Below are positions 1 to 18,701 of a stretch of 64,000 nucleotides of DNA, one piece after another (within the stretch, counting starts at the first letter, position 1; each line of letters starts with the position of its first letter). The DNA comes from an uncultured Planctomycetota bacterium (lineage in GTDB: Bacteria > Planctomycetota > Planctomycetia > Isosphaerales > Isosphaeraceae), in contig CAVTTN010000002.1 in assembly GCA_963737655.1 (NCBI GenBank), forward strand, positions 6,880,001-6,944,000, read 5' to 3'. The notes beneath the pieces were generated by a model. The model searched no databases and was not told where the DNA came from. It worked only from the letters and a program-made list of their open reading frames with translations. A program made the translations under genes and the position numbers.

Positions 1-632
1 AGACCGAGTTGATGAACGGGAACGACCGCGACCTGGCCCATTATTCCGAGGTCCTCGGCCTGATCCGCGCCCACGCGGCCACCCACGCCCGCCGCCACCT
101 GGTCCTCTGCGACTCGCACGTGCCCGGCGGCGGGCTGGTCCGCGACGGGCGGCTGCTGATGGACTTCCACTCGTTCCCCCTGAGGATCAAGGAGGTCCCG
201 GATTCGCCCCAGAAGGCGGTCCTGGAGGCGGGATTCTCCGACAGCCTCTACGGGCGGAGCAAGGGCGGAGTCACGCCCAGCGGCTGGTCGTGCGAGCACT
301 TGCCCTACCTCGTCGAGCTCGACAACTGGGGGGCCAGCCGGCACCCGGGCGAGGCCGGGCAGGGCGGGATCTGGGTCTGGGGTTATGATGAAATCACCTG
401 GTTCGCCCACCAGCCGGAGGCCGTCCGGGCCTCATGGCTCCGCTACGCGAACGACTGGGTCCGCGCCACCGATCCAAACGGCCACCTCCAGATGCCCGGC
501 AGCCGCACTTTGAGGTCGCCCCTCGACGACAAGCGATGGTATTTCGCCAATCGCCCGAGCCCGGCCGTGCCCGAGGGCCTGGGGGACGAGGCGGCGATCC
601 GGGCGATCTGGGCGGACGATTCCAGTAAATGA
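1..632 (+). CDS. Hypothetical protein, C-terminal part (5' end outside window)
   Basis: Frame open from window start to TGA at 630-632; protein-like composition (VELDNWG, WVWGYDEITWFA); no family recognised. Confidence 0.7.
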   Translation, partial: TELMNGNDRDLAHYSEVLGLIRAHAATHARRHLVLCDSHVPGGGLVRDGRLLMDFHSFPLRIKEVPDSPQKAVLEAGFSDSLYGRSKGGVTPSGWSCEHLPYLVELDNWGASRHPGEAGQGGIWVWGYDEITWFAHQPEAVRASWLRYANDWVRATDPNGHLQMPGSRTLRSPLDDKRWYFANRPSPAVPEGLGDEAAIRAIWADDSSK

Positions 633-734: not shown

Positions 735-1962
735 ATGGATGACGACGACTCGCTGACCTTCCTGGACGACGACGCCCCGGGCGAAGCCCCGGCCCCCCCG
801 GACGACGGGCCCGACCTCGTCATCGACGATTCCGACCGCTATTCCCGCCTGAGACTGATCCCCTGGTGGCGCCAGGAGCGACTGGCGGCGGCCCGGGTGC
901 TGGTCGTCGGCGCGGGCGCTCGGCAATGAGGTCCTGAAGAACCTGGCCCTTCTCGGCGTGGGCCGGACCGTCGTGATCGACCTGGATTGCGTCGAGCCGT
1001 CGAACCTCTCGCGATCGGTCCTGTTCCGGGCCGAGGACGGCGGCCAGCCCAAGGCGGAGGTCGCCGCCAGGCGCTCGATGGAGATCAATCCGGAGGTGGT
1101 CGTCTCGCCGATCCGGGGGGACGTGATCACCGACCTGGGCCTGGGCCTCTTCGCCGACGTGGACGTGGTCATCGGCTGCCTGGACAACCGCGAGGCCCGG
1201 CTCTGGGTCAATCGCCAGTGCTGGAAGGTCGGGACGCCCTGGGTGGACGCCGGGATCCAGGAGATCCAGGGCGTCGTCAAGGTGTTCGTCCCGCCCGATT
1301 CCGCCTGCTATGAATGCGCGATGACGGAAAAAGACTATCAATTGCTCAATCTTCGCTACAGTTGCCCGCTGCTCCGTCGCGAGGACATCCTGGCCGGCAA
1401 GGTGCCGACGGCGCCGACGATCGCCTCGATGATGGCGGCGATGGAAGTGCAGGAGGCGCTGAAGCTCCTCCACGGATTGCCCGTCCAGGCGGGTTCGGCC
1501 CTGGTGTTCAACGGAGTGACGAACCAGTTCTATTCGACGAAGCTGCCGTTCCGCGAGGACTGCCTGAGCCACGAGACCTATCCCGAGCCATCGGCGCTGG
1601 AAATCGGCCATTCGGCCACGGCCCGAGCGCTTTTTGACCTCGCCCGGCCGACCGTGGGAAGCCCGATGAGCCTGGCGCTGGACCGCGACCTCGTCACGTC
1701 GCTGGATTGCCCCCGGTGCGGGTGGCATCGGGAGGTCTTCCGCCCCCGGACCAAGGTCACGATGGCCGAGGCGGTCTGCCCGAAGTGCCGCGAAGGCGCG
1801 AGGCCGGAGGTCGTCGGCTCGATCGACGAAGGCTCGCCGCTGGCCGACCGGTCGCTGGCGGACCTGGGCGTCCCGGCTTACGATATCGTCCGGGTCGATG
1901 GGTCCGAGGGCAGCGGATTCTTCCTCCTGGCCGGCGACCGCGACGCCGCCTGGAAGTTGTGA
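735..1962 (+). CDS. ThiF/E1-like ubiquitin-activating-type adenylyltransferase with C-terminal Zn ribbon (apparent 2-bp frameshift at ~918-922)
   Basis: ORF 732-929 gives DRYSR...VLVVGAGA and ORF 958-1962 continues D.D.VEPSNLSR, GCLDNREAR, CYEC, RYSC (catalytic-Cys position), CPRC/CPKC. Restoring 'gc' in gcgggcgctcggcaatgag gives GAGALGNEVLKNL. Confidence 0.88.
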
Positions 1963-1974
1963 GGACGATCGATC

Positions 1975-2718
1975 ATGGCCACCGCGACGGAATCCACGAC
2001 GACGCCTCGTCCCTCGAAGATTGAGCCGGTCCCGGCCCTCCACAATGGCGACCGCCTGAGCGCCGCCGAGTTCGAGAGGCTCTATCGCGAGACGCCGACG
2101 AAATTCAAGGCCGAGCTGATCGAAGGAGTCGTGTACGTGGCCTCACCCGTCTCGAATTCTCATGGCTCATCGCACTTCGATGCCGCCGGATGGCTCCTGG
2201 TCTACAGGGCGTCAACGCCCGGGATCGTCGGTTCGGACAACGGGACGATCCGTCTCGATCTCGACAATCGGCCCCAACCCGACCTCCACCTGCGAATTAC
2301 CCCGGAGTACGGTGGCCGGGCCCGGCTGAGCGAGGATGATTACGTCGTCGGCGCCCCGGAGTTCGTCCTGGAGGCCTCGTTTTCCAGCGCCAGCTACGAC
2401 CTCCACGACAAACTAAACGCCTATCGCCGGAACGAGGTCCAGGAATACGTGGTCTGGAGGGTCGAGAACCGGGCGATCGACTGGTTCATCCTCCGGGACG
2501 GCCAGTATGAGCGGCTCCCGATCACGCCCGAAGGGCACTACCGAAGCGAAGTGCTGCCGGGCCTCTGGCTCGACCCCAAGGCGATGCTCGACGGCGACCT
2601 CGGGCGAGTCCTGGCGGTCCTCCACCTCGGCCTGGCCAGCCCGGATCATGCCCGGTTCGTGGCCGATCTGCGGGCCCGGATCGCTCCCGACCGCCCGGCC
2701 GGGGAGGCCCGCCCTTGA
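1975..2718 (+). CDS. Uma2 family (PD-(D/E)xK-like) endonuclease
   Basis: L.NGDRL...EF, ELIEGVVY, PQPD, GAPEFVLE..S...YDLHDKL..Y. Confidence 0.88.
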   Translation: MATATESTTTPRPSKIEPVPALHNGDRLSAAEFERLYRETPTKFKAELIEGVVYVASPVSNSHGSSHFDAAGWLLVYRASTPGIVGSDNGTIRLDLDNRPQPDLHLRITPEYGGRARLSEDDYVVGAPEFVLEASFSSASYDLHDKLNAYRRNEVQEYVVWRVENRAIDWFILRDGQYERLPITPEGHYRSEVLPGLWLDPKAMLDGDLGRVLAVLHLGLASPDHARFVADLRARIAPDRPAGEARP

Positions 2719-4145
2719 GCGACGAGGACATCCAGTTCGACGACGTGACCTATCGCGAGCCCCACAAGGCCCGGCGGCCGGACTTCGAGCGCAAGCTCGC
2801 CTGCTCGGCCTACATGGTCCCCGGCGCGATCGACTTGCCCATCTTCCTCGACCTCGAGCCGGCCGACGCGATCGAGCGCCACGCCCTGCGCGACGTCTCG
2901 GTCGAGCTCGGCGGCATCCTCCTGGGCAAGGAGTGCATCGACGAGGAGACGGGCCGCCCGTTCGTCTGGGTCACCGAGTCGATCGAGGCGAAGCATTACG
3001 AGAACACCCAGGCGAGCTTCACGTATACTCACGACTCCTGGGAGGAGATCACCCGCGAGCGCGACGCGAAGCATCCCGACCTGGACATCGTGGGCTGGTA
3101 TCACACCCACCCGGATTTCGGGATCTTCCTCTCGGGTCATGACCTGTTCATCCATCACAATTTCTTCGCCCAGCCGCTGCAGGTCGCGTATGTGGTGGAC
3201 CCGATCCGCCAGACTCGCGGGTTCTTCCAGTGGCGGGACGGGCAGATGGTCCAGGTCGGCGGGTTCCACCTGACGGCCCCCCGGGCCGATCGGCCGAAGC
3301 TCGCGAGGTTCGTCAACGAGCTGGAAGGGCTCCCCTCCGCCGACGGCGGCGGAGGGTCCGGGATGTCCCCCCGACTGGAGGCCGAGCTGATCGCCATGCT
3401 TTCGCGACCCCACACCGTGGCGGCGGCGACCGATCGGTCGCAGACGGCCGCGATCTTCACCCTGATCGGGGTGTTCCTGGCGTCCCTGGTCTTCGCCGGG
3501 GCCTACTGGCTCCAGACGATCGGCAAGGGGGTGCAGGACCAGGCCAAAGCGATCGAGATGCTGGCCCAGGCCCAGGAAAAGGCGGCGGCGGCCTCGGAGA
3601 AGTCGCTGGGCTCCGAGCGCGTCCGCGCCAAGGAGGAGGCGCTCGACTCGCTCCTCAGAGACGTGAAGATCGACCCCGCCGCCTCGCCCGCGAAGGTCCT
3701 CTCCCGCCTGACCGAGGCGAACGCGAAGAAGGACGAGGCCGTCCGGGCGATGGAGAGGATTCGCACGGAGAAGGAGGCGCTCGTCGACAAGGCCACGGCC
3801 CTCGACGGCCAGCTCCGGCTCCGGGAGCGGGAGTACGAGAACAACCTGGCGAAGGTCCAGGAGGACGAGAAGAGGGCCCGGGCCGAGCAGGAGAGGCTGG
3901 AGGGGGAGGTCGATTCGCTCAAGAAGGACCTCGAGGCCAAGGCCGGGGTGATCCAGGACGACAAGACCGGCGAGCTCCTCCGCCGGTACAACTGGTCGTG
4001 GTATCTCGCGCTGATCGGCTGGATCGGCTTCCTCCTCTGCGGGGTGGGCCTGGGGGCGGTGTTCGCCCGGCAGTCGGAGGAGGCGGAATCGCGGTCCCGG
4101 GAGGTGGCGAGCCACGATCCCGAGCCTCCCCACCAGATCACCTGA
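2715..4145 (+). CDS. JAB/MPN+ (Mov34) metallo-isopeptidase with two TM helices flanking a coiled coil
   Basis: ELGGILLG ... VGWYHTHPDFGIFLSGHD (JAMM motif); hydrophobic segments AAIFTLIGVFLASLVFAGAYW and WYLALIGWIGFLLCGVGLGAVF; E/K-rich heptads between them; TTG start overlaps Uma2 stop. Confidence 0.9.
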   Translation: MSDEDIQFDDVTYREPHKARRPDFERKLACSAYMVPGAIDLPIFLDLEPADAIERHALRDVSVELGGILLGKECIDEETGRPFVWVTESIEAKHYENTQASFTYTHDSWEEITRERDAKHPDLDIVGWYHTHPDFGIFLSGHDLFIHHNFFAQPLQVAYVVDPIRQTRGFFQWRDGQMVQVGGFHLTAPRADRPKLARFVNELEGLPSADGGGGSGMSPRLEAELIAMLSRPHTVAAATDRSQTAAIFTLIGVFLASLVFAGAYWLQTIGKGVQDQAKAIEMLAQAQEKAAAASEKSLGSERVRAKEEALDSLLRDVKIDPAASPAKVLSRLTEANAKKDEAVRAMERIRTEKEALVDKATALDGQLRLREREYENNLAKVQEDEKRARAEQERLEGEVDSLKKDLEAKAGVIQDDKTGELLRRYNWSWYLALIGWIGFLLCGVGLGAVFARQSEEAESRSREVASHDPEPPHQIT

Positions 4146-4196
4146 GAGGCCCGAGCCCGAGAGCCCAAGAGGCGGCGGCCCTCGCCGGTTCCCCCC

Positions 4197-5480
4197 ATGA
4201 AGAGTGTCCTCCTGGCGATCGCGTTGGTCTTGCCGGGGGCCGACGCCCCGGCCGTCGCCCCTCCGCCCGCTCCCGACGCCTCGAGCACCGACCCCGTCCC
4301 GGTCCCCGAGCCGACGGCGAAGGCCGTCCGCTTCTACCGGACGAGGCTGGTCGTCTGGGCCGTGAGCTGGGCCTGGACGCTGGCCATCCCCCTGGTCCTG
4401 GTCGTCACCGGGCTGTCGGCGAGGCTCCGGGCGTTGGCCTGGAGGCTGGGTCGGCGCTGGTTCTTCGCCGTCACGCTCTTCGTCGTGATGTACCTGGTCC
4501 TCGCGTACGTCCTGACGCTCCCCCTGGCGTTTTATTCCGGGTTCTGGCGGCTCAAGCAGTACGAGCTCTCGACCGAGACGTTCGGCGAATGGCTGCTGGA
4601 TTCGCTGAAGGGGCTGGGCGTGGAGGTGGTCACGATCTCGGCCGTGGCGTGGATTCCCTGCCTGCTCCTGGAGAGGAGCCCGAGGCGGTGGTGGCTCTCC
4701 ACGACCCTGCTCTCGGTCCCGATCATGTTCGGCTTCATGTTCCTGGCGCCGATCGCGGTGGACCCGCTCTTCCACGACTTCCACCCCCTCCGGGACAAGG
4801 CCGCCGAGGCCGAGATCCTCGCCCTGGCCCGTCGCGCGGGGATCGACGACGGACGGATTTTCGAAGTGGACATGAGCAAGAAGACCTCATCCGTGAACGC
4901 CTATGTGAAGGGGTTCCTCGGGACCAAGCGAATCGTCCTGTGGGATACCCTGCTGGCGAAGCTCGACCGCCGCCAGGCCCTGTTCGTGATGGGGCACGAG
5001 ATGGGGCATTACGTGCTCGGGCACGTGGTCCGAAGCCTGTTGCTGGGGGCGGTCGGGCTGGGGATCGTCCTGGGGTTCGTCCACCTGGCGGGATCGGCGC
5101 TGATCCGCCGGTTCGGGCCTCGATGGAAGATCGACCGACTCGGCGACCTCGCCGCGTTGCCCTTGCTCCTGTTCCTCGGCCGGGCGTTCGTGCTGGCGGC
5201 GATGCCGATCGGGATGGCCTACAGCCGCTACCAGGAACACGAGGCCGACCGCTTCGCCCTGGAACTGACCCGGGACAACCACGCCGGCGCCTCGGGATTC
5301 GCGAAGATGCAGGACCAGAACCTCAGCTACCCGAGGCCGGACTGGCTCGCCCAACTGTGGATGTCCACGCATCCCTCGCCGGGTGAACGGATCGACTTCT
5401 GCAACACCTATCGCCCCTGGGCCGAGGGCAAGCCGCTCCGATACGCCTCGCTCTTCCAGGAACAGCCGCCAGCCCCGTAG
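4197..5480 (+). CDS. M48 family (Ste24/HtpX-like) integral membrane zinc metalloprotease
   Basis: NAYVKG, RIVLWDTLL, HEMGH, SRYQEHEADRFA, STHPS..ERI; multiple TM segments. Confidence 0.92.
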   Translation: MKSVLLAIALVLPGADAPAVAPPPAPDASSTDPVPVPEPTAKAVRFYRTRLVVWAVSWAWTLAIPLVLVVTGLSARLRALAWRLGRRWFFAVTLFVVMYLVLAYVLTLPLAFYSGFWRLKQYELSTETFGEWLLDSLKGLGVEVVTISAVAWIPCLLLERSPRRWWLSTTLLSVPIMFGFMFLAPIAVDPLFHDFHPLRDKAAEAEILALARRAGIDDGRIFEVDMSKKTSSVNAYVKGFLGTKRIVLWDTLLAKLDRRQALFVMGHEMGHYVLGHVVRSLLLGAVGLGIVLGFVHLAGSALIRRFGPRWKIDRLGDLAALPLLLFLGRAFVLAAMPIGMAYSRYQEHEADRFALELTRDNHAGASGFAKMQDQNLSYPRPDWLAQLWMSTHPSPGERIDFCNTYRPWAEGKPLRYASLFQEQPPAP

Positions 5481-5676
5481 GGTGCATGAAATGCACCATC
5501 CCGGCTTCGGCTCGCGTGGGATCGAAGATGGTGCATTTCATGCACCCTACGAATCCTGGGCGTCCCGTAGGGTGCATGAAATGCACCATCCCGGCTTCGG
5601 CTCGCGTGGGGTCGAAGATGGTGCATTTCATGCACCCTACGAATCCTGGCCGTCCCGTGGGGTGCATTGGATGCAC
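5477..5676. repeat. Cluster of GTAG-type REP palindromes (two 90-bp REPIN-like units plus a degenerate fifth REP)
   Basis: GTAGGGTGCATGAAATGCACC at 5477 and 5567; inverted copies GGTGCATTTCATGCACCCTAC at 5530 and 5620; degenerate GTGGGGTGCATTGGATGCAC at 5657. Confidence 0.9.
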
Positions 5677-5685
5677 TCGGGCGCC

Positions 5686-6516
5686 TCAGGCCGAGGTGCA
5701 TTGCTTGCTGGAGCAGCCGAAGGTGGAGCAGGCGCCGACGAACGTCCAGCAATCGCGGTGGAAGGGGGTCTTGCACGCGATGCAGACGACGTGGAGGCCG
5801 ACGATCGGGTCTCCGCAGACCTCGCATTGCGGAGGGCCGGCGTCTTCCTCGGCGGGCCCGGCCTCGACGATCTCGATCCCCTCGGCCAGCCGCGACGTCA
5901 CGCCGTGCTGGAGGCAGTCGTGGAGCTTCAACGCCGCTTTCACGGCCGAATCGAGCAGGAGGGCCTGCGTGCCGAGGTTCCGATCGACCTGGACCAGCAG
6001 CCTCTCCGGGTTGATCGACACCAGCATCCCGAACGGCGGGGCGAGCTTGCGGAGGTCGTCCACGGCTTGCCGGGCCTCGGCCGATCGGAGGAACTCGCGG
6101 GCCATGTCGGCGTCGTTGGCCTGGACGACGTACCCGCGGTCGAACTCCGGATGGCCGGCGCGGACCGGCCTCGTCCCTTTCGGGGGCTGAGGAGGCGCCG
6201 GTCGGCCGTATGGGGCCAGCTCGAACCGGAACGGCAAGCCCCGGGCGAACCGCGCGACGACCCGGGTCCTCGGCAACGCCGGCTGGCCCGCCACGACCGG
6301 GGCCAGCCCGACCCTCACGGTCGATCCCAGGTGGCTGAAGCTCACCGTCGGCGGATCGACCATCCCCCGGCTCTCGTATTTCCCGCCGTACCTCGCGGCG
6401 ATCAGGCGATAGGCCCGATGCCTCGTCCCGGTCAGCCCCGCCACCAGCCGGGAGGCCAGGCGGACGATCAGGTAGAGCACGAGGAAGACGACCCCCAGCC
6501 CGATGACCTCTTTCAT
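5686..6516 (-). CDS. Membrane-anchored protein with C-terminal prokaryotic RING finger (Prok-RING_1-like)
   Basis: N-terminal TM (VIGLGVVFLVLYLIV); C-terminal CEVC...CIAC..PFH..CW...GACSTFGC; ATG at 6516. Confidence 0.85.
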   Translation of the reverse strand: MKEVIGLGVVFLVLYLIVRLASRLVAGLTGTRHRAYRLIAARYGGKYESRGMVDPPTVSFSHLGSTVRVGLAPVVAGQPALPRTRVVARFARGLPFRFELAPYGRPAPPQPPKGTRPVRAGHPEFDRGYVVQANDADMAREFLRSAEARQAVDDLRKLAPPFGMLVSINPERLLVQVDRNLGTQALLLDSAVKAALKLHDCLQHGVTSRLAEGIEIVEAGPAEEDAGPPQCEVCGDPIVGLHVVCIACKTPFHRDCWTFVGACSTFGCSSKQCTSA

Positions 6517-6691
6517 GAGGGGTCCGCTCCTCGCCCTTTCGAAACTTCGAATCGCTCGCTCGCTCGATCGATCCGCGCGGAACGGATCGAGTGTAAGCCC
6601 CCGGACGAACCCGACGCAACGCCCGGGAGCCGCCATCGCTCCGCCGGCCCTTCCCAATCCGTCGCGGCCGGGTTACGATCCCCCTCCGGCC

Positions 6692-6719
6692 CCGAACCGA
6701 TCCGAACCGATCCGAACCG
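6692..6719. repeat. Short 10-bp tandem repeat (CCGAACCGAT x ~3) in divergent intergenic region
   Basis: ccgaaccgat ccgaaccgat ccgaaccg. Confidence 0.6.
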
Positions 6720-6739
6720 GCCGAGAAGGACGCCCGGCC

Positions 6740-7639
6740 GTGACCGACCCGAGCCCTCCGCCCAGCCAGGTCGCCGACTCGCCGGCCCTCGGTCGGTTGT
6801 TCGTCCTGGCCGCCGCGATCTTGTGGAGCGTCGGCGGGGTCGTGGCCAAGGGGCAGACGCTCCCTCCGATCGCCGTTTCGTTCTACCGGAGCTTGTTCGC
6901 CGGGCTGGCGCTCCTCCCGTTCGTCCCCCGGTCGCGATGGGCGTTCCGCCCGGCGATGGTGCCGCTCTCCCTGATCTTCGGCGCGATGATCGGCGTGTAC
7001 ATCGAGGCCATCGCCCGGACGACCGCCGCCAACGCGATCCTCCTCCAGTTCACGGCGATCGTCTGGACCGTGCCCGCCAGCCTTTTCTTGCTGAAGGAGC
7101 GGCCCGACCGGCGGAGCGTGGCCGGGATCGCCGTGGCGACGGTCGGCATCGCGATCATCCTCGCCTGGGGCCGAGGTGGCAAGCCGGGCGAAGGGCTGGG
7201 GATGCTCCTGGGCCTGGCCAGCGGGATCGGCTACGCCGCGGCGATCATCGGGATGAGGTCCATGAGGGACGTCGATCCGATCTGGCTGAGCGCCGTGACG
7301 AACCTCGGAGGCGCCCTGGCGCTGGGGGCCTTCGCCCTGGTCGCGATCGGCCCGATCCCCCTGCCGACGGGCCGGCAATGGCCCATGCTGATCGCCTTCG
7401 GGGTCGTCCAGATGGCGATCCCTTACGCCCTGTTCGCCCGGGGCCTGAAGTCGATCGGCGCCCCCGAGGCGGGCCTGATCTCGCTGCTGGAGCCGGTCCT
7501 GAACCCGATCTGGGTCGTCCTGGTCCACGGAGAGCGGCCCTCGACGTTCACGATCGTCGGCGGCCTCCTGTTGCTGGCCGGGGTGGCGGTCCGTTACGTG
7601 CCGTGGGGTCGTCAACCAAGGCCTGAAAACACCAAGTAG
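6740..7639 (+). CDS. DMT/EamA family transporter
   Basis: About 10 TM segments; TTAANAILLQFTA, LLKER, SLLEPVLNPIWV..GERPS; GTG start after AGAAGGA. Confidence 0.92.
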   Translation: MTDPSPPPSQVADSPALGRLFVLAAAILWSVGGVVAKGQTLPPIAVSFYRSLFAGLALLPFVPRSRWAFRPAMVPLSLIFGAMIGVYIEAIARTTAANAILLQFTAIVWTVPASLFLLKERPDRRSVAGIAVATVGIAIILAWGRGGKPGEGLGMLLGLASGIGYAAAIIGMRSMRDVDPIWLSAVTNLGGALALGAFALVAIGPIPLPTGRQWPMLIAFGVVQMAIPYALFARGLKSIGAPEAGLISLLEPVLNPIWVVLVHGERPSTFTIVGGLLLLAGVAVRYVPWGRQPRPENTK

Positions 7640-7782
7640 GGTGCATGCAATGCACCAATAACGCGGTGGCCATCGGCCACCCTCCGTTTCTCTCTCCCCA
7701 TTCCCGATAGAACGGGGAGACGGAGAGGATCAGGAGGGCGGCCGACGGCCGCCGCGTCGTTGGTGCATGGCATGCACCATAC
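7636..7782. repeat. REPIN-like element (inverted pair of GTAG REPs with extended internal arms)
   Basis: GTAGGGTGCATGCAATGCACC (7636-7656) and GGTGCATGGCATGCACCATAC (7762-7782); internal arms acgcggtggccatcggccaccctcc / ggagggcggccgacggccgccgcgt. Confidence 0.85.
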
Positions 7783-7800: not shown

Positions 7801-10100
7801 TTACGAGGTGTACGGTCCGTACACGTTATTGCCCGAAGTCGAGGCCCGATTCAGGAGGAACCTCGTCCTCTGGATCGAGGCGGGGCCTCCGACGATCGCG
7901 ATGGCCCCGCCGAAGCCCTGTCCGGCCGCGCCCGGGGTGGTCCCCTGGCCTCCGGCGCCTCCGAGGGCGAGGTTCAGCGAGAAGAGGCTGTCGGTGACGA
8001 CCAGGCCGCTGGGATCGCCCGCGTAGGCGAAGATGCCCCCTCCGTAGGCGTCGCCGCCGGCCCCTCCCGCCCCGGTTGCCCCGCCATTGCCGCCCTTGCC
8101 GCCGAGCGCCGCGTCGGCGAGGAACGTGGAGGACGCGACGGTCACGCCTCCCGTGGTGAACGCCCCTCCATACGCGGCCCCTCCGGCCCCGCCGGCCCCC
8201 GAGCCGGCCCCGTTGCCGCCGTGGCCGCCGATCGCGACGTCGGCCGAGAACAGCGTGTTCGTGACCGACCCGGAAAGGCCGTCGAACGCGCCTCCCGAGG
8301 CGTAGCCGCCGGCCCCGCCGTCGCCGGTGCCCGAGGCGTTGCCGCCGTTGCCGCCGGTCGCCGAGTTGCCGAGGAACGAGGAGTTCGTCACCGAGCCGAC
8401 CGGCCCGGCGACCGCCCCTCCCGAGGCCGACCCTCCGGGGCCGCCGGGGCCGGCGTTGCCTCCGTGGGCCGAATTGCCCGCGAACGACGATCCCGAGATC
8501 GCCATCGAGCTGCCATAGAACTCGAAGATCGCCCCGCCCGTGGCCAGGTTGCCGTAGCCCCCGGCCGAGGTCGAGGCCCCGGTCGTCGCGGCATTGGCCA
8601 CGAACGAATCATTCTGGATCGTCGAGGAGCCATAGCCGCTGAGGACGATCGCCCCGCCCTGGCCCATCCCGCCGATCGGGCCGAGCCCCCGGCCGCCGAG
8701 TTGCCGGTGAAGCTCGTCCCGGAGACGGTCAGGGTCGCCGGGGGCCCGTAGGAGAAGCCCGCCGAGGCGGAGAGCGCCCCGCCCTGGGCGTAACCCCCCT
8801 GGCCGAACGCCGAGGAGGTGGCCTGGCCGACGGCCTGGTTGCCCGAGAACGACGAGTTGGAGACCGTCGTCGAGCCGAGGTCGCCCTGGACGTTCAGCCC
8901 GGCGCCGGTCGCGGAATACGATCCCGTCGCCGTGTTATTCACGAACGAGTCGCCCGAGACGGTCGTGGTCGGCGGCTGGGGGAAGAACCCGTAGACGAAC
9001 GACCGGCTCATCCCCGCGCCGGCGACCTGCTGGCCGACCACGGAGTTGTCGCGGAAGGTCGAGTTGGTGACGGTGGCCGCCGAGGCGTCCTCGATGAACA
9101 GGCCGCCCCCCCGGGCGAGCTGGGCCGTGGGGTTCGCCGCGCTGTTGCCGAGGAACGTGCTGCGATCGACGCTCGCCGTGCCCGAGAGGATCGCCACCGC
9201 TCCGCCCTGGGCGAAGTTCGGGTCGGTGTCGGTGTTGCCCCGGAACGTGCTGGAGGAGATCGTCACGGCCCCCTGATTGGCCTGGACCGCGCCGCCGAAG
9301 CCCGAGGAGAGGGAATTGCCCTCGAACCGGCTGCCCGAGATCGCGAGGTTCGCGGTGTCCGGCGTGTACCCGCCGTAGTACTCCAGGCCGCCGCCGACGT
9401 TGTTCGTGACGAGGGCCCCGGAGACCGTCAGGCTCCCGTTGCCCAGGAGGATGCCGCCGCCCCCCTGGGCCGTGTTTCCGGAGATCGTCCCCCCGGTGAT
9501 CGAGACGTTCAGGCCGTAGCTCTGGAACGCGCCTCCGCCGCTGGCCGAGTCGTTGAGGAAATTGGTGTTCACGATCGTGACGGTGTTGACCGGGCCGCTC
9601 GGGTTGTAGGGCGTCTCGGCGTCGACGCCTCCGCCGAAGCTCTGGGCGGTGCTGTCGCGGACCACGTCTCGCGAGAGCGTGAGGTTGGCCCCGTAGGTGT
9701 AGAGCGCCCCGCCGGAATACGGCGAATTGCCGTCGGCCAGGGTGAGGTCGGAGATGGCCACGTCGATCGTCGGGGCGCCCGGGCTGGAATCCTGCTGGAG
9801 GACCAGGATCGTGGACTTGCCGCCTCCGCTGATCGTCAGGTGATCGGCGCCGAGGCCGTCGATCGTCAGGCTCTTGCCGGTGCTGAAGATCGGGCCGGAT
9901 GTCAGGGTGATGGTCCGGTCGGTCAGGGTCGGCGAGAAGTTGATCAGGTCGCCCGAAGCGGCGGCGGCGACCTGGGCCCGGAGCGAGCCGGGGCCGTCGT
10001 CGGCCGTGGTGGTGACCGTCAGCGTGGAGAGCAGCTCGCGGGATTCCAGCCGGTCCATTCGCGGAGCGAAGCGCGCGAGGCGAGTCGAGGGCCTGGCCAT
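7801..10100 (-). CDS. Secreted beta-helix / Gly-rich repeat surface protein with planctomycete extracellular N-terminal motif (1-bp frameshift ~8680)
   Basis: RLESRELLS, TVTTTADDGPGSLR, repeated F.GN.A / GGA motifs; ORF 8388-10478 switches into ORF 7801-8667 at GNSAAGGS-G-PIGGMGQGG. Confidence 0.8.
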
Positions 10101-10757
10101 GATGCGGTCTCCGGAGAAAGAAGGACGATGAGACGGAAAGGAGACATCCGCCCGGTCGGCCTCGACGAGGCGCACGACGATCCCCGCCCCGGTCCCGGCC
10201 GATTGGCCGGAGGGGTTCGGCTCAGGCGCCATCGAGGCCCGACGGATTCCGGCGCGCCCCACCGGGGCCTTCGAGACGTCCGGCGCGAGGACGCGCCGGG
10301 ACCGCCCGAGGGCGGACCGCGATTGGGGCATTAAGGCGTCACCGCAGGATGAGAGTTGGCCGCGATCCGCGGCCCGATGAAAAGGGAACGCTCGACGACC
10401 GGGGCACGATCCTGGGACCACCCTTCGAGGCGTGCTCCTCGTCGGTCCCGGGGCGTTTCCCGGGCCGCGCGAGTGCATCCACGAAGGTCGGCCCGGAGGG
10501 GATCTCGCACGATCCCTTCCACGCCGGGATGCACTTATCCGTGACGCACCCCCGCCTCGTCAAGCGCTTTCTTGTTAATTTTTTCGTCAATCCAAATTGA
10601 ACCGTGCGGAGCGGGGAGCCACGGCATGCCCCCTCATGACCTATCGAAAATCCCAAGGCGAGCGAGGGATGGAGGATCGGCCAGGCCCGGCTGAAGTCGG
10701 GCCGGCTCGATCGGTCATCCCCGCCGAGGCGTTCGAGGGTGTCCACCCGGCCAAGCT

Positions 10758-12056
10758 TCAGCGCAACGGATTGAGGACCATCCCCGTGAGCAGCTTTGGG
10801 TAGAAATAGGTGCTCTTGGGCGGCATTTTTTCCAGGTTCGAGGCGATCGACTCGACGTGATCCATGCCCGCCGGGGGGACGAGGCAGGCGAGGTCGCAGG
10901 TCTTCGCCGACGTCGCCGCCAGGACCTCGTCGATCAGGTGGACGTACTGGCAATGGGCCGTCCCGAGCCCGCCGAGGAGCGATTTCAGGACCAGCTCATG
11001 AAGGATGCTGACGCCCAGGGACCGCCATTCGGCGGAGTGCTCCGGGACGATCGAATCCATCGTGGCGTCGGAGCGGAGCCTGGCGGTGACCCATCGGCCG
11101 TCGGCGACGGTGCCGAAGCCGAGCATGTCCTGGTCGCCCTCGGCCTCGATCGCGTCCCAGGCGGCCCGGCATCCGGCGTCCCCCTCGCCGGTCGGCGTGA
11201 CCTCGAACTCGGGCCCGAGCGTCTCGGCCAGGGTCTCGGCGGAGAGCCCGGGGAAGCCCGAGACCAGCCGGTGGGTCGGCAGGATCAGCAAGCCCGGGTC
11301 GTTCATGCTCACCAGCATCATCAGGCAGAAATTGGCCGGGTCGTCGGGGCCGGAAAGCTGCCCGGCGGCGGCCAGCTCGTCGCGATAGGCCAATCCCGTC
11401 TCGTAGCGGTGGTGGCCGTCGGCGATGAAGACGGGCCTGGGAGCGATCAGGCCGGAGGCGAGCGTGTGGGCTTCCTGGTCCGTGACCGGCCAGAGGCGGT
11501 TGACCACGCCGAGGTGGTCGGTGGCCTCCAGGGGGGTCCGGTCCTTCAAGCCGGCCTCGATGGCGGCGAGCACCTCGTTCGACGGGTCGGGATACAGCCC
11601 GAAGATCGGGCTGAGGTTGGTGCCGGTCGCGCGATAGAGGTTCAGGCGGTCGGCCTTCGGGCCCGAGAGGGTCTGTTCGTGAGGATAGATCGAACCCTGG
11701 CCGAACGGCTCGAGCCGGACCCTCGCGAAGAAGCCGCGACGGGTGAAGGTGCGGCCCTCGACGTCGAAGGTCTGGTGATAGACATAAAAAGCCGGATGGG
11801 GGTCTTCGGCCAGGATGCCTTGCCTCCTCCAGTCCTTGAGGAACCGGGAGGCCCGGTCGTAGCGGTCGTGGCCCGGGGCGTCGCCGGGTTCCTCGCGGTT
11901 GAGCTCCAGGCGGATGATATTGAAGGGGCTGGCGCCGTAGAGGCGATCCTGGAGGGCCTGGCCGATCACGTCGTACGGAGGGGCCACCACGTCGGACAGG
12001 GCGCCGACCCGGGCCAGGTCGTAGCGGACGCCTCGGAACGGTCGGATCTCGGGCAT
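10758..12056 (-). CDS. DUF1015 family protein
   Basis: MPEIRPFRGVRY, APPYDVI, PHEQT, IADGHHRYET, PTHRLV, MPPKSTYFYPKL. Confidence 0.92.
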   Translation of the reverse strand: MPEIRPFRGVRYDLARVGALSDVVAPPYDVIGQALQDRLYGASPFNIIRLELNREEPGDAPGHDRYDRASRFLKDWRRQGILAEDPHPAFYVYHQTFDVEGRTFTRRGFFARVRLEPFGQGSIYPHEQTLSGPKADRLNLYRATGTNLSPIFGLYPDPSNEVLAAIEAGLKDRTPLEATDHLGVVNRLWPVTDQEAHTLASGLIAPRPVFIADGHHRYETGLAYRDELAAAGQLSGPDDPANFCLMMLVSMNDPGLLILPTHRLVSGFPGLSAETLAETLGPEFEVTPTGEGDAGCRAAWDAIEAEGDQDMLGFGTVADGRWVTARLRSDATMDSIVPEHSAEWRSLGVSILHELVLKSLLGGLGTAHCQYVHLIDEVLAATSAKTCDLACLVPPAGMDHVESIASNLEKMPPKSTYFYPKLLTGMVLNPLR

Positions 12057-17623: not shown

Positions 17624-17777
17624 CCGGCCTCCGGGGCCGCGACGATCCGGCGCGAGCCTCACGAGCTTCCCGCTCGCGCCGGATTGCCCGATCCCGACTG
17701 AATTCCTTAGAATGGACGGTCGATGCCGATTCCGGCCGGAGACATCCCCGTGCCCGATCGGCCGACGGAGCCCGACC

Positions 17778-18701
17778 ATGACCGCCCGCCCCCGTCGTCG
17801 AGGGTTCACCCTGATCGAGCTGCTGGTCGTCATCAGCATCATCGGGGTCCTGGTGGCACTGCTCCTGCCGGCCGTCCAGATGGCCCGCGAGGCCGCCCGA
17901 CGCAACCAGTGCGTGAACAACCTGAAGCAGATCGGCCTGGCCCTGCACAACTACCAGCTCTCCCACGCGGTCTGGCCGCCGGGTTACGTCACCAACTGGT
18001 TCAAGAAGCAGGAGTTCGGGCCGGGCTGGGGCTGGGGCACGGCGATCCTCCCCCAGCTCGAACAGGGGAACCTCTACTCGGCCTGCAACCTCGACGTGAA
18101 CATCGAAGATCCCATCAACCTGACCGCCAGGACCGTCACGATCGCCGTCTATCTCTGCCCGACCGACAACCCCCCGCCGACGATGACCGCGACGTACTAC
18201 CCGGACAAGGTGATCATCCCCCGGGGGACGCCGATCTGCGACGTCTCCTCGACGAACTACTGCGCCATGTTCGGCCTGGGCGAACCCGGGATCGCCGGCG
18301 AGGGGCTGTTCTCCCGGAACGTGTCCATGGCCCCCGAGGACGTCCACGACGGACTCAGCCAGACGATCGCCGCGGGCGAACGGTCGTGCAAGCTGGGCAA
18401 CGCGACGTGGGTCGGCTCGGTCACCAACGCGGTCCTCGGGCCGCCTCCGGGCTACAACGGCACCGTCGGCCGGCTGATCCTCGAACCCGGGGCCGGGATG
18501 ACCCTGGGCCACGCCGGCGAGGGCCGGGGGCCGGGCGACAATCAGTCCGATTGCAACATGTATTTCAGCCTCCATCCCGGGGGCGTGAACTTCGTCTTCG
18601 CCGACGGCCACGTCAGCTTCCTGAAAAGCTCCATGGACGCGAAGCTCTACGCCGCCCTCTCCACCCGGGACGGCGGCGAGGTCATCCCGGACCAGTATTG
18701 A
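17778..18701 (+). CDS. DUF1559 domain protein
   Basis: [41 protein letters not shown]. Confidence 0.95.

Follow-up and report, generated by a model that had tools for sequence, protein, structure and literature searches.

A predicted ubiquitin-like conjugation system with membrane-anchored ligase and peptidase, kept across the planctomycete family Isosphaeraceae

Here, we describe five genes for conjugation of a ubiquitin-like protein (Ubl) in an uncultured planctomycete of the family Isosphaeraceae (genome G000; assembly 88% complete), found by analysis of a 64,000-nucleotide stretch of its genome (the window, G000:C2:6880001-6944000, whose positions are given below as bare numbers) and of the flanking stretch L009, in which L009:6433-6744 corresponds to G000:C2:6876433-6876744 and L009:10632 ends at window position 632. 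The core unit comprises the genes for a RING-finger protein that is the putative ligase (E3), the Ubl, a conjugating enzyme (E2), an activating enzyme (E1) and a JAB peptidase, in the order RING-Ubl-E2-E1-JAB; an M48 protease and an MMPL transporter encoded beside them are neighbors and not members. We rely on sequence, synteny and structural models for the identity of the parts and of their catalytic residues, for the five-gene unit and for the fit of the RING finger to the E2 surface. Taken together, these genes probably constitute a vertically kept Ubl conjugation system of Isosphaeraceae, acting on the cytoplasmic side of the inner membrane. An initial annotation of the window had proposed such a membrane-tethered set of Ubl, E1, E2, RING and JAB proteins, and this part of it stands, with the gene order conserved, the catalytic residues kept and the modeled RING-E2 complex fitting. 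Because the kind of system was predicted in 2011, the surprise is limited; new are the family-wide conservation, the boundary of the unit and the domain carried by the ligase, which resembles in shape a human chaperone of membrane proteins.

Gene order and conservation across the family

Gene order was compared in 40 loci, each spanning up to 20 kb around E1, which were picked for long contigs and spread of genera from the 105 family genomes with an E1 match; gene presence was scored in 120 family genomes and in 300 other genomes of the phylum. The usual order in relatives is a divergent EamA transporter gene followed by RING, Ubl, E2, E1, JAB, M48 and MMPL. Upstream of E1 and on its strand, the Ubl gene is found in 37, the E2 gene in 38 and the RING gene in 21 of the 40 loci; downstream lie JAB (38 loci) and M48 (27 loci), both on the same strand, and MMPL (21 loci, or 22 when counted anywhere in the fetched stretch). 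The five genes are linked in one conserved neighborhood, as in the predicted prokaryotic five-component operons. In the 101 genomes that possess both, RING lies less than 3 kb from Ubl in 55 and 3-8 kb away in 3, and where the cluster is split in three loci (L120, L122 and L133), RING, Ubl and E2 remain joined.

Across the 120 family genomes, E1 and Ubl were each found in 105 and RING in 106; a few of the E1 and Ubl family matches are the paralog only, and 104 Ubl matches are ortholog-level. Among the 47 genomes that are at least 90% complete, E1 and Ubl are present in 41 and RING in 42, and five of the misses belong to genus g50. The system is mostly single-copy, with fixed neighbors, across 51 of 53 genera.

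Genus g50 marks the edge of the unit. E1, Ubl and RING are all absent from its eight genomes, and JAB was not found in the five genomes tested nor E2 in the one tested, in searches that had no positive control. The same genus retains MMPL in 8/8 and M48 in 7/8 genomes, with EamA adjoining M48-MMPL in three of the four loci read (L116, L117 and L119) and M48-MMPL only in the fourth. M48 goes with MMPL where the cluster splits, and it was not found in several system-bearing genomes (for example, G110-G112, G060 and G048). Since g50 keeps both genes without the core genes and M48 is missing from several carriers, M48 and MMPL were rejected as core members; of the synteny that the initial annotation proposed to examine across Isosphaeraceae, the order Ubl-E2-E1-JAB, with RING upstream in the 21 loci, is conserved, but the membership it gave to the M48/Ste24 protease does not hold. 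The M48-MMPL pair, which is linked across the family, may be a module of its own. A quick RpoB tree built from 29 genomes does not settle the branching of G060, genus g50 and the remaining genomes at the base of the family, and it fits loss in g50 as well as a state preceding insertion, with gain after g50 had split off.

Outside the family, relatives of E1 (38-58% identity) occur in 34 and of E2 in 38 of the 300 genomes. Three near-complete genomes of genus g55 (G163, G359 and G420) have an E2 match and no E1 of this type at an E-value of 1e-50; these are possibly orphan E2s or parts of a more distant system.

The modifier and its processing enzymes

The Ubl precursor gene (G000:C2:6876433-6876744, or L009:6433-6744, + strand) encodes a YukD-like protein of 103 amino acids (YukD profile, 2.5e-14) with a predicted mature end at Gly97. 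It is followed by the E2 gene (L009:6818-7543, + strand; 241 amino acids), whose product has the UBC fold (UQ_con, 3e-12), an HPN motif and Cys101, the latter two invariant in 39/39 sequences. The initial annotation had seen neither component in the window and suggested a search of the genome for them, and both are there, 2.5-3.6 kb upstream on the same strand as E1, the Ubl gene starting 3.6 kb and the E2 gene 3.2 kb before the window. This E2 gene is the only one that a search of G000 found.

The Ubl ends in YPEVVAG in 38/39 sequences, with the stop at that Gly in 11, tails of 1-11 residues in 27 and a tail of 108 in one. Conservation stops at Gly97 and gives way to a variable tail, a pattern also found in BilA, whose precursors are cut by BilC (10.1101/2023.09.26.559546). 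In pairwise comparison the Ubl averages 89% identity over 37 full-length rows, two others being set aside; the averages are 75% for the JAB domain, 69% for the E2 core, 68% for E1 and 55% for the RING protein. RpoB in relatives that carry the system shares 80-90% of its residues with a same-genus copy, and the Ubl is conserved to about the same degree.

The E1 gene is assembled in two pieces on the + strand, an N-terminal one (735..929) that runs up to the GAGA of the nucleotide-binding loop, with a frame break near 918-923, and a C-terminal one (923..1962, open reading frame 958-1962; ThiF, 1.4e-41) that holds the adenylation domain, a zinc site (CYEC...CLSH) and a ubiquitin-fold domain (UFD)-like region. 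The putative catalytic Cys (LRYSC, codon 1363-1365) is invariant in 53/53 sequences, in agreement with the E1/ThiF protein with a Cys at the catalytic position that was first noted here; the gene is real, but its frameshift in the GxGxxG loop and the Uma2 gene behind it had been overlooked. The C-terminal CxxC...CxxC had been read as an extra zinc ribbon, and the ribbon is present, but as an insert in the UFD-like domain. The model of E1 from a relative with an intact gene (pLDDT 92.9) spans 381 residues and contains a single adenylation domain. UBA3 (range 2-373) and UBA1 (1-374) are the only fold matches whose alignment extends through the C-terminal domain, which we therefore infer to be a UFD interrupted by the zinc ribbon. 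In the same fold search, the bacterial E1-E2-Ubl structure 8tyz comes 16th. By sequence, the best matches in the PDB are UBA7/UBA1 for E1, Ubc13 for E2 and Rpn11 for JAB.

The JAB gene (2715..4145, + strand; PF01398, 3.8e-9) encodes an Rpn11-like JAB/MPN+ peptidase with an N-terminal catalytic domain and two transmembrane (TM) helices flanking a charged helical region. In G000 its motif reads E64...H130-T-H132-P...S140..D143, and the hydrophobic segments lie at ~245-263 and 431-449, which bears out the Rpn11-like motif and two TM helices noted earlier; the JAMM motif is kept in 39/40 JAB proteins and two TM segments in 32/40. The stretch between the TM helices is a candidate coiled coil, to judge from its sequence.

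The putative E3 and its membrane domain

The RING protein (5686..6516, - strand) has an N-terminal TM helix, a middle domain of the TtfA/CCDC47 fold (DUF3137-like, residues 28-213) and a C4HC3 finger of the Prok-RING_1 family (residues 231-268; 4.3e-7) that scores 30.2 bits against a cut-off of 29.1 and whose eight ligands are invariant in 60/60 sequences. Its model (pLDDT 88.2) shows the N-terminal helix and the finger with an alpha/beta domain between them. Over residues 30-211 the best match is TtfA (6t84; Foldseek E-value 3.4e-6) with Z 14.8 and a root-mean-square deviation (rmsd) of 3.7 over 160 aligned residues, followed by chains from two translocon structures, 7tut_4 (Z 13.1, rmsd 8.0 over 202) and 9i78_4 (Z 10.8); all later rows have Z 8.9 or less. 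The chain 7tut_4 is, judging from its range, presumably CCDC47. For 9i78_4, the range 76-375 agrees with residues 76-370 of CCDC47, one of the subunits of an intramembrane chaperone complex (PMC12572126). In TtfA, which binds MmpL3, an N-terminal TM helix is likewise joined to a cytoplasmic domain (PMC6593404). The DUF3137 profile matches weakly in 19/22 members, a middle-domain profile had no real match among PDB sequences, and the ESM Atlas gave a best score of 0.89 with unnamed clusters and 0.81-0.82 with DUF3156, DUF3137 and TtfA, which serves as a lead only. Basic residues after the TM helix suggest that the domain is cytoplasmic.

The modeled E2-RING complex scored 0.69 against 0.01 for the best of three controls, a pass that likeness to solved RING-E2 complexes may explain; the mark used is reached by 116/157 solved pairs and 2/215 mismatched ones. 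At least 95% of contacts agree between runs, partner pLDDT is at least 74, and the interface occupies E2 residues 9-17, 77-78 and 105-114, which we take to be the usual RING-binding surface.

The TM-DUF3137-RING arrangement is wider than the family. The finger is present in 61 of 82 distant representatives of at least 220 residues, one cluster of which bears Pirellulaceae names, and the full arrangement was found in 14 of the 300 phylum genomes (eight candidates scored per genome). An E1 or E2 match accompanies it in 10 of these 14 genomes, compared with 40/300 overall, a comparison in which related genomes are not independent. G000 also has a stand-alone gene of 199 amino acids (G000:C2:6573199-6573795, - strand) for a DUF3137/TtfA-like domain and no RING (profile E-value 1.1e-6; hhalign probability 95.7).

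The cluster in the genome under study

The initial annotation described the RING gene as convergent with the others. The TM protein with its finger on the minus strand is as described, but the convergence arises because the block from Ubl to M48 is inverted in G000. Repetitive extragenic palindromic (REP)-like GTAGGG hairpins in 90-nt units (5474..5683) lie at the right junction of the inversion, and hairpins occur at both junctions, but those belong to different classes with 61-273 genome copies each; an inversion driven by these repeats is unsupported, given that the classes differ and the repeats are common. At least three classes of these hairpins were seen in the genome (273, 144 and 61 exact 11-mer copies), with sites at window 5474-5683 and at L009:173-392, 3072-3134, 6185-6218, 7684-7757 and 17636-17782.

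The E1 gene is frameshifted inside the GxGxxG loop, where a GC run is two bases shorter than in three relatives. Frameshifts were found in 5 of the 51 G000 genes that could be tested with the proteins of relatives (E1 included), so that an indel error of the assembly is the most likely cause of the E1 break.

E2 and E1 are parted in G000 by a 3.2-kb hydrolase-like insertion (L009:7556-10632, + strand; 3' end at window 1..632) that has no match in any of the 40 relative loci and is not a member of the system. It holds two alpha/beta-hydrolase-like repeats that resemble each other and, at the C-terminus, a domain that no Pfam family matches, and its two overlapping frames, with a REP hairpin at the start, suggest one frameshifted gene. 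A Uma2-family passenger gene (1975..2718, + strand; PF05685, 2.8e-28) sits between E1 and JAB, as it does in 7/40 relative loci.

Beyond JAB lies the M48 (Ste24-like) membrane protease gene (4197..5480, + strand; HEMGH; PF01435 and PF16491), rightly recognized at the outset and a syntenic neighbor. The EamA gene (6503..7639, + strand), the conserved divergent neighbor of RING, forms the left edge of the unit in relatives, and the MMPL gene is at L009:3243-5936 (- strand). As the initial annotation had stated for the neighborhood, no thiamine, molybdopterin or cysteine genes were seen by eye among the open reading frames from 17 kb before the window to window position 12000. The only other ThiF-family gene of G000 is 3.6 Mb away. 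A scan for promoters and terminators gave chance-level results only. Further along, the minus-strand region 7801-10478 encodes a Gly/Ala/Asn-rich repeat protein that by eye resembles secreted beta-helix proteins and is spread over two frames near 8400-8670, probably through another indel.

Proposed mechanism and rival explanations

By analogy with homologous systems, our source for all of the chemistry as well as for the topology in the membrane and the targets, the membrane-anchored JAB would trim the pro-Ubl after Gly97. E1 would then adenylate Gly97 and take the Ubl as a thioester on the Cys of LRYSC, its UFD-like domain would recruit E2, and the Ubl would be accepted on Cys101. The TM-anchored RING would bind E2 and the TtfA/CCDC47-fold domain would present a membrane target, with JAB later removing the tag. 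Most likely the tag serves in housekeeping, as a reversible mark that is placed on membrane proteins or on their insertion partners and acts without the proteasome. A bolder version, which we offer tentatively and regard as doubtful, is that Ubl conjugation is a core housekeeping pathway of the family whose E3 fuses a CCDC47/TtfA-type chaperone domain to a RING and marks membrane proteins as they are inserted or assembled; it would be a bacterial equivalent of membrane-protein quality control at the endoplasmic reticulum (ER), operating without a proteasome.

Several observations weigh against a conjugation system of this kind. Among the 101 genomes with both genes, 10 have RING and Ubl on one contig but far apart, and 33 have them on separate contigs. 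The shared TtfA/CCDC47 fold by itself shows no function, and type III secretion chaperone-like domains of the same fold class match at Z 6-9; structural matches of the finger are weak (RING/U-box Z 5.1-5.7) and tied with ZZ-type fingers, and the E2-RING pass may reflect mere resemblance to the many solved complexes. Four of the 14 outside carriers lack both E1 and E2 matches, and one genome, G310 (99% complete), has a full TM-DUF3137-RING gene with no E2 or YukD match. Fold searches place the adenylation core of the E1 model closest to MoeB, ThiF and UBA5. YukD of B. subtilis is reported to be unconjugated (PMC1779556). In G000 itself, E1 is broken as assembled and the cluster bears an insertion and an inversion.

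The last point raises the question of whether the system, real in the family, is decaying in G000, with the E1 frameshift, the insertion and the inversion all genuine. Three disruptions fall within one cluster and the break lies in the ATP-binding loop of E1, but about 1 in 10 tested genes of the assembly is frameshifted, the motifs are intact in both E1 pieces and in all partners, and same-genus copies of the Ubl match it at 97-99% identity, which makes decay quite unlikely. That the genes serve a sulfur-carrier pathway of the MoeB/ThiF type and no protein conjugation is highly improbable. The E1 core does match ThiF and MoeB best by structure, so that the likeness asked about in the initial annotation is mixed, with the adenylation domain nearest MoeB, ThiF and UBA5 and the sequence matches led by UBA7/UBA1. 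Against that pathway, E2 with its invariant Cys, RING and the Rpn11-like JAB form one unit, the E1 has the extra UFD-like domain and falls far below the cut-offs of all ThiF/MoeB NCBIfam models (ThiF, 145 versus 275 bits; MoeB, 121 versus 266), the genome has a separate ThiF-family gene elsewhere, and the Ubl ends in AG and not GG.

Other alternatives accept conjugation and differ on its purpose. The ligase could be a TtfA-like partner of the neighboring MMPL transporter, so that the system tags and regulates that lipid exporter; TtfA, the protein closest to it by fold, likewise combines an N-terminal TM with a cytoplasmic domain and is a binding partner of MmpL3 (PMC6593404), and an MMPL gene is near the cluster in 22/40 loci. 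All eight g50 genomes, however, keep MMPL without the system, MMPL departs with M48 when the cluster splits, and no MMPL is found beside the outside TM-DUF3137-RING genes in the ~1.5 kb of flank read, and we judge a transporter-specific role unlikely. An anti-phage system like Bil, here placing the Ubl onto phage proteins at the membrane, would be in line with the defence roles of the tested bacterial relatives Bil and CBASS Cap2 (10.1101/2023.09.26.559546, 10.1101/2024.11.21.623966), with the Uma2 nuclease-like gene inside the cluster in 7/40 loci and with the patchy occurrence of related systems outside the family (34/300). Inside the family the genes are near-universal, mostly single-copy and fixed in their neighbors in 51/53 genera, the Ubl is about as conserved as RpoB, and PADLOC returned no match for Ubl, E2, RING or M48 and weak partial matches only for E1 and JAB; defence is distinctly unlikely.

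The initial annotation favored disposal resembling ER-associated degradation (ERAD), in which tagged membrane proteins would be cut by M48 and degraded. The M48 gene does follow JAB on the same strand in 27/40 loci, E3 and JAB are both membrane-anchored, and the fold relative CCDC47 belongs to an intramembrane chaperone complex (PMC12572126). On the other side, seven of the eight g50 genomes retain M48 although they lack the system, and in several genomes that carry the system no M48 was found. A search of the G000 assembly (88% complete) revealed no Pup ligase and no 20S-like subunit beyond two PF00227 matches that look HslV- and Anbu-like, names that we assign on the presumption of characteristic motifs; the Anbu-like gene (G000:C2:6296928-6297497, + strand) is unlinked to the Ubl system. 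With no Pup ligase or 20S proteasome found and M48 independent of the core, an ERAD-like route is unsupported and, in our assessment, improbable.

A reversible mark on membrane proteins thus remains our preferred reading, and the system has uses beyond the case itself. It has all five canonical parts, with eukaryote-like E2 and JAB, and behaves as a core gene set, which allows a direct test of E3 function in a bacterial RING and of what a Ubl tag does without a proteasome. Genus g50 offers a natural comparison lineage without exactly the genes RING-Ubl-E2-E1-JAB, and the TtfA/CCDC47 domain steers the search for targets toward membrane proteins.

Comparison with known systems

The bacterial Ubl systems tested so far (Bil, Bub and CBASS Cap2) are reported to be without a RING E3, and defence is the function of those whose role is known (10.1101/2023.09.26.559546, 10.1101/2024.11.21.623966). 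The Bil types I and II (BilABCD) and Bub operons share with the Isosphaeraceae genes a Ubl precursor with a conserved Gly and short tail, processing by a JAB, an E1 and an E2 (same sources); no E3 gene is described for them, BilD combines an inactive adenylation domain with a helical Cys domain, and Bil is anti-phage. Profiles of BilA, BilB and BilC found no match in the Isosphaeraceae system, and BilD matched only at 8e-10 over 117 residues. BilD has an inactive and an active adenylation domain, whereas the Isosphaeraceae E1 model has a single one.

A second planctomycete clade (L050-L061 and L096-L115), patchy in distribution, is present in some of the same family genomes and across the phylum. 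Its E1 is 39-58% identical, and it shares JAB, Prok-RING_1 fingers, a UBC E2 and a Ubl, which ends in PEITAG in the twelve family paralogs. It differs in gene order, which is mostly Ubl-E1-JAB...RING(s)-E2, in its RINGs, which are parts of zinc-ribbon/TM and trypsin-like proteins (domain names partly by eye), and in having no TtfA-like domain in 32/32 loci scanned. The layout seen is Ubl, E1, JAB with TM, a multi-TM/FHA-like protein, a zinc-ribbon TM protein, a RING TM protein, a RING/trypsin-like protein and E2. In L050, L051, L053 and L054, the Ubl does not end at the Gly but is extended by a zinc ribbon and a pair of TM helices, a fused precursor that JAB could cut.

Among the PDB matches of JAB are the Rpn11-like entries 6fjv and 6fju, presumably from Caldiarchaeum subterraneum. 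That organism has a true ubiquitin, a soluble RING-H2 protein and a proteasome, whereas the Isosphaeraceae system has a YukD-like Ubl and membrane anchors, with no proteasome found; a compact E1 with a UFD is, we assume, common to both. The C. subterraneum operon (Ub, E1, E2, RING and Rpn11) follows the same five-gene logic (PMC4197634).

TtfA (6T84) and CCDC47 of the PAT complex (7TUT chain 4 and 9I78 chain 4) share with the RING protein the N-terminal TM helix and the cytoplasmic alpha/beta fold, at 7-14% identity and with no sequence-level match, and the latch helices of CCDC47 have no counterpart in the RING protein. To our knowledge, neither TtfA nor CCDC47 carries a RING.

Bacterial versions of the five-component operons have membrane-linked RINGs. 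Burroughs, Iyer and Aravind reportedly predicted in 2011 (Mol Biosyst) operons of Ubl, E1, E2, JAB and RING genes in prokaryotes including Planctomycetes, their Prok-RING_1 being Pfam PF14446, and that study may already show the present operon. In a literature search by title and the opening of the abstract, which left subscription journals mostly uncovered and did not take in supplements, nothing was found on this operon, its family-wide conservation or the TtfA/CCDC47-RING fusion. The prokaryotic operons, also treated in PMC7159879, are said to occur sporadically and to be lacking in many cases from close relatives, with Planctomycetes named as carriers (PMC4197634). The Isosphaeraceae version has the same five components and the same RING family; in contrast to the sporadic operons it is present in 105-106 of the 120 genomes of one family, and it joins the RING to a domain of the TtfA/CCDC47 fold; the structure of TtfA was released in December 2019.

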